Shown: positions 2,414 to 53,528, counted from the stretch's first letter. The stretch is 64,000 bases of DNA from an uncultured Clostridia bacterium (GCA_900016865.1 FIZI01000005.1:37895-101894); one strand, 5' to 3'. Numbers and translations: made by a program. The notes: a model not told the origin generated them from the letters alone.

Positions 2414-3883
2414 CTACCAGGTGAACATAGCCTCGTAAGTTACATCCACTTGAGAGTTTGCAGGGACTTCTACAACAAACGACACAGTATTGGCGTCTAT
2501 CTTCGTATACTCGTGGCTGCTCTGCAAGATCTCGTAGTCTCCATACAATGACTCGACAACTTGGATCTCCACGGTCTCGTCTTTATGATTTCTTAGTTCG
2601 ATTCTGAACGCGTCTTTCCGCGAGTTGGATCCAACTCTTGTCGTGCTGACATTGATCCTCTTGCCTGTTACATCAAAAGCATCGCCAATATAGAGGGTGA
2701 TCTCCTCATCCTTGGGTGTATGGTCAATCGAGTCCTCGCCTACGAACTCAAGGCTGCCATCTACATCGGCTTTGTTGACTCTGACCCTACCCTCAGGTAG
2801 AGGCATGCCCATGTTGTTTTCCTTGGAGTTCTCCAACTTAAGAACCACTTTTACATTTTCCGAGTATGAGTAAGGCTGTGTATACCCGGGAATCCTGCCA
2901 AACACGTATTGCTTCTTAACCGGGATTCCGGACACTGACAACAACTGAATCTGCTTAGTCTGGTTGTTCTTTACAGTGGTCGGGAACTCGAGTTTATAAA
3001 GGTGATATTCAAATAGAGATCTCTCCTCAAAGGACTCCGGAGCAGGACTCGCTGTCCTTCCGACGGCCATGAGGTCGTAGTACACGACCTTGTCCGCAAC
3101 TCGGTGTACATCGCCCGCAACCAGCTTGAGTTCGGCATTTTCAAACTCTACACCGCTATTATTGGTTATCGTAACCCAACCAGTCAGGTCGGCAGTCTTG
3201 TCGTCGTCGCCAAGCGTCAGGACGTAGTCCGCAGACCACGACAGGCCTCCGGTGAGATAGGAGACTTCCATCTCGTGATCAGTCTGATCAGAAGTATTGA
3301 TCATGTTCCAGACCAAGGTCGGCTTCATCACAAGTCCTTCGGGCAGGCTTGGATACCTTATAACTTCGATCTCGCTTCTCGCTATAGAAGTGATCGATCC
3401 GCCGAACGGCCTATCGGCGAGGATCAAGCTCCCACCGCTGGTAGGGACGTTGATCAGATAACCGGCATACTCGGTCCCATCTTTTGTGCGGACCTCGATG
3501 TGCTGACCTAGGAACTTTGATAGCAGCTTGTCGCCGCTTACTGTATCGTACTCGTAGTTTTGTTCGAGGATCCTTATGCTGCCCTCCTCAGTCAACGACC
3601 TGAGGATCACAGACGTCGCGTCTATTCTAGACGGTATGTCAGTAAAGGAGAGAACCGAGTTTCCCAATGGCACTGTTAGAACCCGCACGTCTCTGACGAG
3701 AGCGAGGTTGTCGTTGTATATGGTTAGAAATAGCTTCCTGCCAGTGGGTGCATATGTGTCATCTGTGCCTTCAACAGACGGATTTGTCTGGGCTGCAAAC
3801 ACACTCCCGGCGAGGAGACTTGCGACAATGACTACAGCTGCCAGTATCGCGGGAGTTTTCCAACAAGCTTTCATATAACGCAT
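2414..3883 (-). CDS. secreted DUF4139/DUF4140-family protein (MuiA-like), signal peptide
   Basis: 489 aa with an N-terminal signal peptide (AILAAVVIVASLLAGSVFAAQT). Overall architecture resembles TIGR02231/DUF4139 proteins. The family call is from memory only. Confidence 0.5.
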   Translation of the reverse strand: MRYMKACWKTPAILAAVVIVASLLAGSVFAAQTNPSVEGTDDTYAPTGRKLFLTIYNDNLALVRDVRVLTVPLGNSVLSFTDIPSRIDATSVILRSLTEEGSIRILEQNYEYDTVSGDKLLSKFLGQHIEVRTKDGTEYAGYLINVPTSGGSLILADRPFGGSITSIARSEIEVIRYPSLPEGLVMKPTLVWNMINTSDQTDHEMEVSYLTGGLSWSADYVLTLGDDDKTADLTGWVTITNNSGVEFENAELKLVAGDVHRVADKVVYYDLMAVGRTASPAPESFEERSLFEYHLYKLEFPTTVKNNQTKQIQLLSVSGIPVKKQYVFGRIPGYTQPYSYSENVKVVLKLENSKENNMGMPLPEGRVRVNKADVDGSLEFVGEDSIDHTPKDEEITLYIGDAFDVTGKRINVSTTRVGSNSRKDAFRIELRNHKDETVEIQVVESLYGDYEILQSSHEYTKIDANTVSFVVEVPANSQVDVTYEAMFTW

Positions 3884-6640: not shown

Positions 6641-6770
6641 CTCCACATGTATATAGCATCTGATTTGCGTATATGGGTAAATGTAAACGACGAGAAAAAA
6701 TCTCGTCGTATGTTGGACACCGCATACGGGTTCGATGTACTACTAGTGCAACTGCATCCAATATATGCAA
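6641..6770. repeat. copy 1 of a ~125-nt conserved intergenic element (candidate sRNA/REP-like repeat)
   Basis: About 75% identical to 51361-51485 and, as reverse complement, to 15364-15484. Shared blocks are ctccacatRtatat, gtatatgg, aaacgacgagaaaaaatc, accgcatacg and tgcatccaatat. A perfect hairpin acgacgaga-aaaaa-tctcgtcgt is present. Confidence 0.6.
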
Positions 6771-15242: not shown

Positions 15243-15363
15243 ACCCTGCCTTATCTGTCCGATCTGCAGCAGTCATTACGTCAAGTATACATGAACAAAA
15301 AAACTGTGTCCACGAGACCCAAACCACAGTTTGCGCAAAGGGATTGACGCGACCCCCAAATCA

Positions 15364-15484
15364 TGGATCCACTTATACTGATGATATTCTCAACACGTAG
15401 GCGAAGTACAGCACAAGACGAGATTTTTCCTCGTCATTTGCATGTGACCATATACGTACACCAGACCTAATGCATATGGAGCCC
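15364..15484. repeat. copy 3 (inverted orientation) of the ~125-nt intergenic element
   Basis: The plus strand here (gacgagatttttcctcgtcatttgcatgtgaccatatacgtacaccagacctaatgcatatggagcc) aligns to the reverse complement of copies 1 and 2. Confidence 0.55.
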
Positions 15485-50125: not shown

Positions 50126-50380
50126 TCACAGCTTAATCCCAGCTCCGGGCATATATTCAGGATTGAGATAATCAGATGGGTCTGTGCTTATAAGCCTGAC
50201 CACTTCCGCCATGCCTTCTCCGGTTTCACACACGATGAGGCGCGCACCTCCTCGGACTACCTCACGATACCGTTTGGGGTCCAATGCAGCGCTCGTCATT
50301 ACTAGAGACTCGACTTCCTGGCCGTGGAGCGACTGCCAATCTGCGAACACAACTTCTGGAGGAATCACTGAATACAGCAC
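50126..50380 (-). CDS. hypothetical small protein (84 aa) downstream of tepA-like gene
   Basis: The ORF has a 5-nt gap to the upstream gene (coupled). No recognisable motif. Confidence 0.35.
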   Translation of the reverse strand: MLYSVIPPEVVFADWQSLHGQEVESLVMTSAALDPKRYREVVRGGARLIVCETGEGMAEVVRLISTDPSDYLNPEYMPGAGIKL

Positions 50381-50385
50381 AGCTG

Positions 50386-51258
50386 TTACTCCTTGTCCTT
50401 GCCGGTTTTTTCGCTAGACTCTATGAGCTCATGCAATTTGGCAAGTGCAGCGGACAACCCGCCCACCTCATCGATCAAGCCTACCTCGACAGCCTCTGCA
50501 CCGACCATGACTGTACCTACATCCCGCACTAAGTCCCCTGTTCGAGTCATCAGCTCGCGGAACTTCTCTGCCTCGATTCGAGAATGTTTAGTGATAAAAC
50601 GTATCACCCTGTCCTGCATTTTGTCCAGATACTCATAGGTCTGAGGCACGCCTATGACAAGGCCTGCGAGTCTTATGGGATGGATGGTCATTGTAGCAGT
50701 GGGGGCAATAAACGAGTAGTCTGCGCTGACTGCTATCGGAATGGCGATCGAATGGCCTCCTCCAAGAACTAGTGACACTACCGGCTTTGAGAGGGTCACC
50801 AACAGTTCTGCGATGGCCAGCCCTGCGTCAACGTCCCCTCCTACGGTGTTCAAGACGACGAGGACGCCCTTTATGCTCGGGTCCTGCTCTATTGCCACCA
50901 GCTGGGGAATGATGTGTTCGTACTTGCTTGTCTTGTTTTGAGGAGGGAGGACCAAGTGTCCCTCGATCTGCCCGATTATGGTCACGCAGTGGATCTCAGA
51001 TCTGTGAGCTCCTAGAGGTGGCGTTTGGCCCATTTGTTTCACTGACTCCATGGTCGATTGGGCCGAGTAATCCCTGTTCTCCTCAACATTCTCTTTGCGC
51101 TCAGCATTGGATGCCCTGCTTCTGCCTGGATCTGCAGTGGCTCTCCTCCCGCCGATCTGCTCGGACAGAGCAGAATCCTTGCCTGATAGCAGCAACTGAG
51201 TGTGCATACTCTCCGGAGTCATGAAATCACCATCTTTCCATATATAAAAGGCGTACAC
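50386..51258 (-). CDS. ClpP-family protein (TepA/translocation-enhancing protein-like)
   Basis: ClpP fold with a GGGHSIAI Ser and a MTIHPI His region. The N-terminal extension is non-homologous; an alternative start is ATG 51222 (SD GGTGA). Confidence 0.7.
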
Positions 51259-51360
51259 AAATCAAACAGCCGTATGACTAGTATGCATTCAGCTCGCAGC
51301 TGCTATGCCACACATGCAAAGCCCAGCGCAGTACAGGGTTGTGAGTGGTTCTCTTAACGT

Positions 51361-51485
51361 CTCCACATATATAGGGTCCGGTGTACGTATATGGTCGAAT
51401 GCAAACGACGAGAAAAAATCGCATCGTTTGTTAGATACCGCATACGAGTCGAGTGCACTATAGGTGCAGGTGCATCCAATATTTG
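51361..51485. repeat. copy 2 of the ~125-nt intergenic element
   Basis: Aligns base-for-base with 6641-6770 at roughly 75% identity, including the hairpin region and the tgcatccaatat end block. Confidence 0.6.
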
Positions 51486-51640
51486 GGGTAGGTGTCAGTC
51501 GCATCCACGGCCCATGTCCACACTTCACTTGACAATCAGCAGTCGGTTTGGTTCAATTACAGCGGGTGGACATCGTGGGCGGGTTGCTCCGCAGGTCTAC
51601 CGAGTTTACGAGACCCACTCCGGGATAGAAAGGAGCCGCC

Positions 51641-51655
51641 ATGTTCAGCAGGTAA
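51641..51655 (+). promoter_or_regulatory. 4-codon leader uORF (MFSR) of ABC-F attenuator
   Basis: AGGAG SD at 51631-51635, 5-nt spacer, then ATG TTC AGC AGG TAA. A terminator lies downstream before the ABC-F start. Confidence 0.5.
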
Positions 51656-51813
51656 CCGACTTGTGGTACGCAGCCTCAAAAAGCGTCATCACTTAGGTCG
51701 AACCTGCAGTGGTTGGGCTCTCGTCTTTCATTGCGCTGTTTGGAGTGATTCACCGGGATAGGACCGCCTAGTCCAGTCCTATCCGATCACCCATAAGCTA
51801 CGTGTGCGCTCAG

Positions 51814-51853
51814 GGCCACGGCAGGTTTGACCGCCGTGGCCTTTGCTTGTTTG
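51814..51853 (+). terminator. leader attenuator terminator upstream of ABC-F gene
   Basis: GGCCACGGC-aggtttgacc-GCCGTGGCC followed by TTTGCTTGTTTG, ~40 nt before ATG 51894. Confidence 0.65.
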
Positions 51854-51893
51854 CGAGACTATTTTGCGCTCACAGCCTTGGGGGTGGACGTCA

Positions 51894-53528
51894 ATGCTAT
51901 TGAGCTGTAACCGGATTCGGAAGCAATATGACGGGATCGAAATACTGAAAGGCATCGATCTCGATATCGCGTTTGGTGAAAGGATCGGTCTGGTCGGACC
52001 CAACGGGGCTGGCAAGACCACTCTCATGCAAGCCATTGCTCACGAGGTGTCGATTGACGATGGAGATATCACCTTCTGGCTGCCTCGAACGAAAATAGGA
52101 TATCTGCGCCAGTCTGTCGGAGCCTCGCGTTTCTCTGAAGGATACCGCCTCATCACAGTGACCCGCAGACTCGAGTCGGGCAAGACCATAGTCGAACCGC
52201 CAGCCGCAGATACTGATGAGCTTCGTGAGCTGCTGAAGATCTCGAGTCAGTTAGGCATCGGGTATTTAGACGAGTGGAGTGCACAGCACATCAACGGCCT
52301 CAGTGGAGGAGAGCGAGCAAAGCTTGCACTGGCAAGGATCTGGTCGGCTCAGCCTGATCTCTTGTTGCTCGATGAGCCCACCAATCATATGGACCTCAAC
52401 GGCATAGACTGGCTTATCGATCAGCTCAGACAGTACACAGGCGCGGTCCTTGTAATCTCACATGACCGATATTTTCTTGATCAGGTTGTATGCAGGATCG
52501 TAGAAATCGATGACGGCAAAGCTGAGAGCTACAGCGGCAACTACTCCTTCTATAGAGAAGAGAGGGCAAGAATTCGAGCAGCCCAGCTAAGACAGTATGA
52601 AGAAGCAAAGAGGCAGGAGAAACGCTTAGAAGAGGACGTTTTGCGCACCAAGCAATGGGCGGCCAAGGCTCACAGGGAGGCAGGCAAAAAGTCGGAGATA
52701 AGGTCGGCAAAGGTCGGCGACAGAGCCCGAGCAAAGCGGATCGATAGGCAGGCCAAAGCAAAGGTCAAGCGGCTCGAACGGCACAGGGCAAGAGCGCCGA
52801 GAAAACCAAAGGACGACCCGAATATTCGCTTTCAGATCAAGAGCGCAGAGAAACACGGCAGGCGAATGATCTACGCCAAGGGGATCTCCAAGGAGTACTC
52901 GGGCAGGGCCTTGTTTAGAGACAGTAGTTTCTACATCCTCAGAGGTGACAAAGTCGGATTGCTTGGCAAAAACGGCTGCGGCAAGACAACCCTCCTTAAA
53001 ATCATCCTGGGAGAAGAAACTCCTGATGAGGGCGAGGTCTGGATCAGTCCATCTGCGTGCATCGGATACCTCGCTCAGGGAGATCCGCTGTCAGGCGCAG
53101 ATGGATCGACGCTGGATGTTCTCGGCCTATCGAGTAGCGTGCTCGCGTCAAAGGCAAGGACCTTGCTCGCACAGATGGGTATCGGAGAGGATCTGGTTCA
53201 TAAGCCCGTCAGCGTCCTCAGTGCGGGCGAAAGGACCAAAGTGGAGATAGCGAGACTGATCATCAACCAGGCAAACCTTCTCCTCCTCGACGAGCCAACC
53301 AATCACCTGGACATCTATGCTAGAGAGCAACTCGAAGCGGCGCTAGTCGCCTATGACGGAACCATAATCATGGCTTCTCACGACAGGCGCATGCTAGAGT
53401 CGGTCTGCAACCGAATCCTCGTATTCGAAGACGGGCAGATACGACCTATGAGAGAAGAGGCCGATCCACCCGACGTAGACATAGAGTGGTGCTTTAGCAG
53501 CGACGACATAGAGCTCGATCTGCCCTAG
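51894..53528 (+). CDS. ABC-F family ATPase (two ABC domains, no TMD; ARE/translation-factor type)
   Basis: Two Walker A motifs (GPNGAGKTT, GKNGCGKTT), two LSGGE signatures and a ~80-aa Lys/Arg-rich interdomain linker. ATG 51894 has a GGGGGTGGA SD. Confidence 0.85.
   Translation: MLLSCNRIRKQYDGIEILKGIDLDIAFGERIGLVGPNGAGKTTLMQAIAHEVSIDDGDITFWLPRTKIGYLRQSVGASRFSEGYRLITVTRRLESGKTIVEPPAADTDELRELLKISSQLGIGYLDEWSAQHINGLSGGERAKLALARIWSAQPDLLLLDEPTNHMDLNGIDWLIDQLRQYTGAVLVISHDRYFLDQVVCRIVEIDDGKAESYSGNYSFYREERARIRAAQLRQYEEAKRQEKRLEEDVLRTKQWAAKAHREAGKKSEIRSAKVGDRARAKRIDRQAKAKVKRLERHRARAPRKPKDDPNIRFQIKSAEKHGRRMIYAKGISKEYSGRALFRDSSFYILRGDKVGLLGKNGCGKTTLLKIILGEETPDEGEVWISPSACIGYLAQGDPLSGADGSTLDVLGLSSSVLASKARTLLAQMGIGEDLVHKPVSVLSAGERTKVEIARLIINQANLLLLDEPTNHLDIYAREQLEAALVAYDGTIIMASHDRRMLESVCNRILVFEDGQIRPMREEADPPDVDIEWCFSSDDIELDLP

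Follow-up and report, generated by a model that had tools for sequence, protein, structure and literature searches.

The window analysed here, a stretch of 64,000 nucleotides (GCA_900016865.1, FIZI01000005.1:37895-101894), originates from an uncultured Clostridia bacterium, a member of the Bacillota. On its plus strand it harbors a gene for an ABC-F ATPase which is preceded by a leader containing a four-codon upstream open reading frame (uORF), competing RNA hairpins and an intrinsic terminator. This leader is very probably a ribosome-mediated transcription attenuator of the vmlR/cplR type that serves a chromosomal, VmlR-like ABC-F gene of the antibiotic resistance (ARE) class. Computational analysis identified the elements of the leader, showed that they are mutually exclusive, conserved and marked by covariation, and yielded the in-silico switch as well as the family of the encoded protein. 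These results support the interpretation of the first-pass annotation, which had recognized in the uORF-terminator layout the induction mechanism of ARE-type ABC-F genes.

The leader opens with a putative σA-type promoter at 51529–51557, composed of a −35 hexamer TTGACA (51529–51534), a 17-nt spacer with a TG at 51549–51550 and a −10 hexamer TTCAAT (51552–51557), from whose position the transcription start is predicted at about 51562–51565. A consensus promoter scanner, the rule of which demands A as the second base of the −10 hexamer, did not call this promoter, and it reported no promoter-like site downstream of the terminator. The pattern TTGAC[AG]-17 nt-TT[CGT]AAT with the upstream TG nevertheless occurs in each of the 12 leaders of the alignment described below, always equally far from the uORF. 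Transcription starting only downstream of the terminator, which would speak against the proposed layout, is hence not what the sequence suggests, as the conserved putative promoter lies upstream of the uORF. The Shine-Dalgarno sequence (SD) of the uORF, given as AGGAG (51631–51635) in the first-pass annotation, reads AAGGAG at 51630–51635 and is located 5 nt upstream of the start codon; the surrounding GAAAGGAG varies little or not at all among the 12 leaders. Direct reading likewise confirms the mini-ORF ATG TTC AGC AGG TAA at 51641–51655, encoding MFSR, and the ABC-F start codon at 51894 with its SD GGGGGTGGA at 51880–51888. The ABC-F stop codon ends at 53528, and translation yields 544 amino acids instead of the 545 counted earlier.

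The intrinsic terminator spans 51812–51854. The GC hairpin with U-rich tract had been placed correctly; its stem was described as 9 bp long and consists in fact of 11 bp (51812–51822/51833–51843) and an inner 3-bp GGU/ACC helix, with a 1-nt bulge. Within this stem the uninterrupted repeat GGCCACGGC (51814–51822)/GCCGTGGCC (51833–51841) is followed by TTTGCTTGTTTGC, and the U-rich tail UUUGCUUGUUUGC has nine U in 13 positions. The hairpin has a predicted energy of −29.3 kcal/mol (51800–51862; z = −3.26 versus shuffles). A simple terminator scanner did not report it, its sole match being a weak minus-strand hairpin across the uORF, because its rule accepts loops of 3–8 nt and the uninterrupted 9-bp stem encloses a loop of 10 nt.

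Upstream of the terminator the leader folds into a second hairpin, termed P1 (51622–51728), which is found both in the minimum free energy (MFE) structure of the window and, independently, by RNAalifold. Its core (51648–51707) is built from the helices GCAGGU/ACCUGC, CGAC/GUCG and UGGUACGC/GCGUCAUCA, closed by a loop at 51672–51682. The 5′ strand starts at G51648 in uORF codons 3–4, includes the stop codon and ends at 51671; relative to the uORF AUG it falls within +7 to +20. In a basal extension predicted by RNAalifold, GGAGC (51632–51636) of the uORF SD pairs with GCUCU (51717–51721). The MFE of the 301-nt leader has a z-score of −4.04, and the corresponding fold contains P1 as well as the terminator.

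Four segments can thus be delineated: segment 1 comprises the last uORF nucleotides and those directly 3′ of them, segment 2 (GGUCGAACCUGCAGUGG) extends over 51696–51712 and belongs to the 3′ strand of P1, segment 3 (51816–51832) is the 5′ arm plus loop of the terminator and segment 4 (51833–51843) its 3′ arm. Segment 2 constitutes the 5′ strand of an antiterminator, for which segment 3 provides the 3′ strand. The anti-antiterminator (1:2), the antiterminator (2:3) and the terminator (3:4) exclude one another. Segments 2 and 3 form the longest inverted repeat of the 640-nt intergenic region (17 nt, with 15 of 17 Watson-Crick pairs and one G-U). Their duplex has an energy of −31.1 kcal/mol compared to −21.5 ± 2.7 kcal/mol for shuffled sequences, while the 1:2 duplex amounts to −28.1 kcal/mol versus −19.2 ± 2.6 kcal/mol; each is better than 998 of 1000 dinucleotide shuffles of the partner region. 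P1 and the terminator are separated by a variable spacer (51729–51811), which contains the lineage-specific hairpin GGAUAGGAC (51756–51764)/GUCCUAUCC (51776–51784), inverted repeat I6 of our analysis. The sequence of this spacer is conserved no further than the closest orthologous locus, L081.

In order to assess the conservation of these elements, related leaders had to be drawn from metagenome assemblies, since the closest protein among GTDB species representatives is only 44% identical (contig scan), i.e. there is no near relative, and the leaders of the six loci L001–L006 recovered by the genome-contig scan are non-homologous. In a large protein collection the ABC-F protein belongs to a small clade at 53–76% identity, all members of which come from metagenome assemblies. 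Eleven further leaders were obtained from metagenomes, eight of them via the proteins and three, from JGI/GenBank metagenomes, via a DNA pattern for P1 alone; the pattern scan returned only these three loci, all close to protein-derived ones. The resulting 12 leaders represent about seven lineages, and the ABC-F proteins of the 11 relatives are only 55–76% identical. Protein-derived loci with enough flanking sequence share the gene order clpP-like protease and ylzJ (minus strand), ABC-F (plus strand), degV and 5′-nucleotidase (minus strand); L092 and the short pattern-derived contigs were left out of this comparison.

Promoter, SD, uORF, P1, segments 2 and 3 and the GC-rich hairpin with its U-rich tail are present in 12 of 12 leaders at nearly constant spacing, while the first 70 nt, preceding the uORF SD, and the approximately 100-nt stretch between segments 2 and 3 are poorly conserved. 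The P1 core and the terminator taken together show 97.1% paired cells in the alignment, compared to at most 40% in slid controls, and four pairs are changed on both sides. The terminator itself is 100% paired, with compensatory exchanges at two pairs (CG↔UA, split 5/7 among the sequences, and GC→AU in L083), hairpin energies of −24 to −29 kcal/mol and a U-rich tail in every leader. For the base of P1, 89.3% of the cells are paired (slid controls at most 61%), and its covariation score of 0.346 (slid controls at most 0.174) is reached by one of 500 shuffles. The antiterminator is paired to 84.3% (slid controls at most 46%) and its duplex energy lies between −26 and −31 kcal/mol across the 12 leaders. 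It contains one covarying pair, 51702/51826 (alignment columns 171/319): A51702 is replaced by G in five sequences, exactly where U51826 is replaced by C, so that A-U becomes G-C in the antiterminator, and the pair with U51653 in P1 is kept as well (U-A to U-G). P1 and the terminator are recovered from the alignment by RNAalifold independently. The mutually exclusive helices whose absence, according to the first-pass annotation, would have argued against a switch are therefore both present and conserved.

Four-codon ORFs and GC-rich hairpins are each common, and the terminator scanner had missed the hairpin, which leaves room for the view that the short ORF has nothing to do with the stable hairpin and that the two have met by chance in a long intergenic region and play no regulatory role. 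The comparative data effectively refute this view, the probability of which appears negligible: elements and spacing are conserved next to proteins that are 55–76% identical, compensatory changes are found, and only 2 of 1000 shuffles match the duplexes.

The gene downstream of this leader codes for a VmlR/VmlR2-like (ARE2-like) ABC-F ATPase of 544 residues (51894–53528, plus strand), as judged from NCBIfam model NF000355, phmmer searches and an AlphaFold2/Foldseek comparison. Pfam assigns two ABC_tran domains and ABC_tran_Xtn (PF12848), i.e. two nucleotide-binding domains (NBDs) and no transmembrane domain, and the Walker A, signature, Walker B-Glu and H-loop motifs are intact in both NBDs. 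NF000355, which describes ribosomal protection-like ABC-F proteins, is matched with 455.7 bits (cutoff 380), while the protein stays well below each cutoff of the NCBIfam models for Msr, Vga, Lsa, Sal, CplR, OptrA, EttA, Uup, YbiT and YheS. Among PDB sequences phmmer ranks VmlR2 (8BUU, 438.8 bits) and VmlR (6HA8, 319.6 bits) before EttA (260 bits), MsrE (257 bits) and VgaA (250 bits); the identity to VmlR2 is 45% over 411 residues. The AlphaFold2 model (mean predicted local distance difference test score, pLDDT, 82.6) has 8BUU (TM-score 0.80) and 6HA8 (TM-score 0.75) as top Foldseek matches. By family models, sequence search and predicted fold the protein is closer to VmlR/VmlR2 than to the other ABC-F subfamilies. 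A member of its 90% identity cluster, occurring on 123 contigs, bears the NCBI name 'ABC-F type ribosomal protection protein [Bacillota bacterium]'.

The interdomain linker, which corresponds to the antibiotic resistance domain (ARD) of ARE proteins, comprises residues 217–300 (52542–52793) and is modeled as a helix (217–265), a tip loop (266–271) and a second helix (272–300). Its alignment with the ARDs of VmlR2 and VmlR is continuous, and about 24 of its residues have no counterpart in EttA. The basic character ascribed to it earlier is borne out, with 33 Lys and Arg among the 97 residues 222–318 (34%, net charge +18) as opposed to 14.9% Lys and Arg in the whole protein. Linker and protein group with VmlR2/VmlR and not with the housekeeping factors EttA and Uup, the outcome that had been expected of a resistance-type ABC-F.

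VmlR2 of Neobacillus vireti (8BUU) and VmlR of Bacillus subtilis (6HA8), both ARE2 proteins, are the best matches in sequence and fold, and like them the window protein has two intact ATPase sites. Its ARD, a hairpin of two helices, is intermediate in length, with 6 residues fewer than in VmlR2 and 2 more than in VmlR. Differences are observed at the ARD tip, where GKKSEIRSAKVGD is unrelated to the tip of VmlR with its Phe237, and in two further regions: the window protein has no structured C-terminal extension, and it carries an insertion of about 25 residues in NBD1 (residues ~78–108, ~52125–52215) which is absent from VmlR-like homologues. This additional segment is modeled with low confidence and sits where other ABC-F proteins carry the 'arm'.

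Returning to the leader, the uORF is presumably translated. SD, 5-nt spacing, ATG and in-frame stop codon are kept in 12 of 12 leaders, although the encoded peptide varies: it is MFSR in the window and in L089, MFIR in L081 and MRR in all others, with a TAA-type stop listed for L082, L083, L084, L085, L087, L090 and L092 and a TAG stop in L088 and L091. The difference between four and three codons is a clean in-frame 3-nt indel, and the stop is preserved through the change from TAA to TAG. The last sense codon is AGG, encoding Arg, in all 12 uORFs.

This composition raises the question of an attenuator that senses arginine or tRNA-Arg, in which ribosomes on the Arg-rich uORF would stall whenever charged tRNA-Arg is scarce, after the fashion of classical amino-acid attenuators. 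Seven to nine of the 12 uORFs indeed read Met-Arg-Arg and all of them end in Arg. However, AGG is the commonest Arg codon of the window genes (27.5%) rather than a rare one, the uORFs of the window and of L081 contain a single Arg, and the codon forms part of the conserved GCAGGU strand of P1, so that RNA pairing explains its conservation. In addition, no connection exists between the regulated gene and Arg metabolism, and the drug-induced cplR gene possesses a uORF of the MR type (PMC10201436). Sensing of arginine is accordingly regarded as extremely improbable.

Very improbable, too, is a riboswitch-type attenuator that binds a ligand or a protein and in which the mini-ORF would be incidental and untranslated. 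The three-helix structure would work with any factor that destabilizes P1, and the extended P1 includes the uORF SD in a helix. On the other hand, Rfam yields no riboswitch, T-box or leader family, neither for the leader at E ≤ 10 nor for the whole window at gathering thresholds, and P1 is devoid of conserved internal loops or junctions that might point to a site for a ligand. Furthermore, SD, spacing, ATG and stop persist in every leader through indel and stop-codon exchange while neighbouring unpaired sequence drifts, and the closest characterized systems all depend on the ribosome (PMC9226507, PMC10201436).

The effect of a ribosome on the leader was simulated by blocking positions −15 to +15 around the P-site codon. 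If the transcript is ended at segment 3, the probability of the 2:3 pairing in the window rises from 0.05 for the free RNA to 0.92 when the ribosome occupies AUG and to 0.87 when it occupies the final sense codon. In 8 of the 12 leaders the switch is clear, the pairing probability going from almost 0 to 0.68–0.92. This behaviour of the partial transcript is the one expected of a kinetic attenuator, the model that experiments have established for vmlR.

Several observations weigh against the attenuator as proposed, or limit the support for it. In the full leader at equilibrium the terminator of the window retains a probability of 0.999 with the uORF blocked, and only 3 of 12 leaders flip; a purely thermodynamic switch is ruled out by this persistence in the window and most leaders, and the switch would consequently have to be kinetic, i.e. 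co-transcriptional. For the transcript ended at segment 3, L084 shows no switch and L082 a weak one, while L081 and L083 favour the antiterminator already without a ribosome. The distal third of the antiterminator (51708–51712 × 51816–51820) is poorly conserved in register, and the alignment shuffle control for this helix is not significant. As the 12 leaders represent only about seven lineages of one clade, covariation events are few. The U-tract of the terminator is not continuous and, in L081, weak. With respect to the uORF, GCAGGU is constrained by RNA pairing as well, and conservation of the Arg codon is therefore not independent evidence for translation. On the side of the protein, the chain ends about 25 residues after NBD2 with an acidic tail (residues 521–544, 53454–53528) that is predicted to be disordered, and the whole orthologous clade lacks the C-terminal extension of about 60 residues present in homologues that are 42–47% identical. 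In the ARE2 subfamily this extension is made up of two helices and contacts the 30S subunit. VmlR is inactivated by deletion of its C-terminal extension, whereas MsrE naturally has none (PMC6130385). Owing to the missing extension the protein is classified as VmlR-like (ARE2-related) and not as a typical ARE2 protein.

It is this last feature that gives weight to an alternative in which the RNA switch is the same and the ABC-F protein is a stress-induced translation factor of the YfmR/YkpA/EttA type, the uORF then reporting any slowed initiation, elongation or termination. The gene is chromosomal, strictly syntenic in the whole clade and not located on a mobile element, the clade lacks the extension needed by VmlR and carries the insertion in NBD1, and VmlR itself is reported to be induced by general translation defects (PMC9226507). 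Yet the protein is nearest to VmlR2/VmlR in sequence and fold, with the housekeeping ABC-F proteins clearly lower; it passes the ribosomal-protection model of NCBIfam, and its ARD exceeds the EttA linker by about 24 residues. Synteny is not decisive either, the intrinsic chromosomal ARE proteins VmlR, CplR and LsaA being equally syntenic and non-mobile. A translation factor of this kind thus is unlikely, though it deserves serious consideration. A more specific version, in which the clade with enlarged NBD1 and without C-terminal extension represents an endogenous ribosome-rescue factor and the attenuator a general sensor of impaired initiation or termination, appears quite unlikely; if it were true, the vmlR-type switch would be a translation-quality sensor that was later adopted by resistance genes.

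For the preferred reading, an attenuator of a resistance-type gene, the following course of events is proposed. Transcription would start at the conserved promoter near 51562 and produce a leader which encodes the four-codon uORF (three codons in most relatives); the final part of this uORF, together with the nucleotides that follow it, would supply the 5′ strand of P1. Without drug, the ribosome would complete the uORF and depart, P1 would form and sequester segment 2, and with P1 in place the terminator would fold and halt RNA polymerase about 40 nt before the ABC-F start. A ribosome arrested on the uORF, either on AUG or on the last codon, would cover the 5′ strand of P1 with its footprint. 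Segment 2 thereby set free could pair with segment 3 as soon as the latter is transcribed and before the 3′ arm of the terminator exists, so that the terminator would be blocked and the ABC-F gene transcribed. The protein would then bind to the ribosomal E site, where its extended linker may reach the peptidyl-transferase centre and dislodge the drug. The role of antibiotics as the signal and that of the protein as a resistance factor are inferred. The inducers probably belong to the pleuromutilin/lincosamide/streptogramin A (PLSA) class, judged by analogy; drugs of this class arrest initiating ribosomes.

A comparable arrangement has been described for the vmlR leader of B. subtilis (Takada et al. 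2022), where mutagenesis and toeprinting established a uORF (MIN) within the anti-antiterminator hairpin SL-1, an antiterminator and a terminator (PMC9226507). A 30S toeprint is found 16 nt from the A of the AUG, and mutations of the SD or start codon abolish induction by lincomycin (PMC9226507). Both leaders have a short uORF in an anti-antiterminator, an antiterminator overlapping the terminator (SL-3 in vmlR), an intervening hairpin and a VmlR-family ABC-F gene downstream, and they would share the logic of a ribosome stalling at or near initiation. The spacer hairpin of the window matches the pause hairpin SL-2 of vmlR in position (PMC9226507). No pause signal was identified in this hairpin, and no NusG TTNTTT pause motif was seen between P1 and the terminator in the alignment by eye, a formal search not having been made. 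Despite the similar architecture the two leaders have no detectable sequence homology, and neither has an Rfam model. The uORF of vmlR reads MIN and its SD is single-stranded, whereas that of the window reads MFSR (MRR in most relatives) and has its SD in the basal helix of P1; in vmlR the SD of the main ORF is sequestered by SL-4, whereas the leaders described here show no consistent placement of such a pairing.

The cplR leader of Clostridioides difficile (Obana et al. 2023, PMC10201436) likewise starts with a three-codon Met-Arg uORF in a 5′ hairpin that is followed by a terminator. It combines transcriptional with translational attenuation (PMC10201436), the terminator stem itself hiding the main SD, whereas the terminator of the window ends about 40 nt before the SD. 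CplR moreover belongs to ARE1 and not to ARE2. Common to vga(A), lsa(A), lmo0919/vgaL, msr(D)/msrDL, lmrC and ermC is the principle that a ribosome halted by a drug on the leader peptide changes the fold of the leader RNA and thereby permits expression. The macrolide-responsive msrD and erm systems use longer, sequence-specific arrest peptides and often translational attenuation; uORFs of three to four codons are typical of PLSA-type ARE proteins, as exemplified by CplR (MR[I/M]), VmlR2 (MK[L/Q]) and LsaA (MAGN) (PMC10201436). The very short uORF of the window therefore argues for the PLSA-type class with stalling at initiation. Mini-uORFs also occur upstream of the distant homologues L001 and L004–L006 (MHK in L005, MIN in L006), and a terminator is evident in L001, L005 and L006.

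A second level of control at the ABC-F SD was considered. The SD of the window, GGGGGUGGA (51880–51888), corresponds to a GGUGG-containing SD that every orthologue has 5–8 nt ahead of its start codon (ATG, TTG or GTG). Predictions for read-through transcripts show this SD paired everywhere, with a partner that differs by lineage. In the read-through MFE structure of the window, GGGGUGG (51881–51893) pairs with GACCCACUCC (51612–51621) just upstream of the uORF SD, the partner 51615–51621 being shared with L081. Other lineages have a CCAC-containing anti-SD in the spacer, e.g. AACCACCU in L084–L088, or elsewhere. Translational attenuation by this pairing is possible; its partner is not conserved, and it lies outside the main claim. 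Two gene-calling artefacts in the source assemblies touch the same region. An 88-residue minus-strand 'gene' is called across the leader of L081 (1363–1629), and in L083, L085, L086 and L087 the ABC-F start is annotated at position 3001, in or just after the terminator hairpin, which results in proteins of 547–561 residues. The SD-supported TTG or GTG start of orthologues with such a miscalled start is found 24–78 nt downstream of the terminator.

In its surroundings the ABC-F gene is nearly the sole plus-strand gene amid about 60 kb of minus-strand genes (window positions 2414–63959). Its stop codon overlaps the stop codon of the convergent degV gene (53525–53528), and the gene can therefore be regarded as a self-contained monocistronic unit. 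Ahead of the ABC-F promoter, the window and L089 possess approximately 215 nt that L081 lacks, and one copy of a dispersed repeat of about 128 nt makes up most of them. Three intergenic copies are found in the window, at 51361–51488 and 6641–6767 on the plus strand and at 15354–15481 on the minus strand, with 72–79% identity. They share a long imperfect hairpin with the conserved apical stem AAACGACGAG-AAAAA-CUCGUCGU and have no match in Rfam; the repeat could be an element resembling miniature inverted-repeat transposable elements or repetitive extragenic palindromes, or a small RNA. Between the divergent genes, finally, the minus-strand motif GGCATA-18 nt-CATACTA (51276–51308) is conserved in all orthologous loci. 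It resembles the consensus of forespore promoters of the sigma-G/sigma-F type, GHATR-17/18-CATXHTA, and this candidate promoter faces the clpP-like (tepA-like) gene at 50386–51258 and ylzJ at 50126–50380.

Taken as a whole, the attenuator is a further example of a known mechanism, and its gene has already been named a ribosomal protection protein by NCBI. The catalogue of regulatory mini-ORFs of PLSA-type ARE proteins gains MRR and MF[S/I]R, which bears on how the uORF sequence tunes drug-specific induction (PMC10201436), and a seed alignment of 12 sequences is now available for a covariance model of the leader. The VmlR-like clade that naturally lacks the C-terminal extension poses the question whether this extension is needed outside VmlR. 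For the environmental and digester Bacillota that carry it, the system flags what may be an inducible intrinsic resistance.

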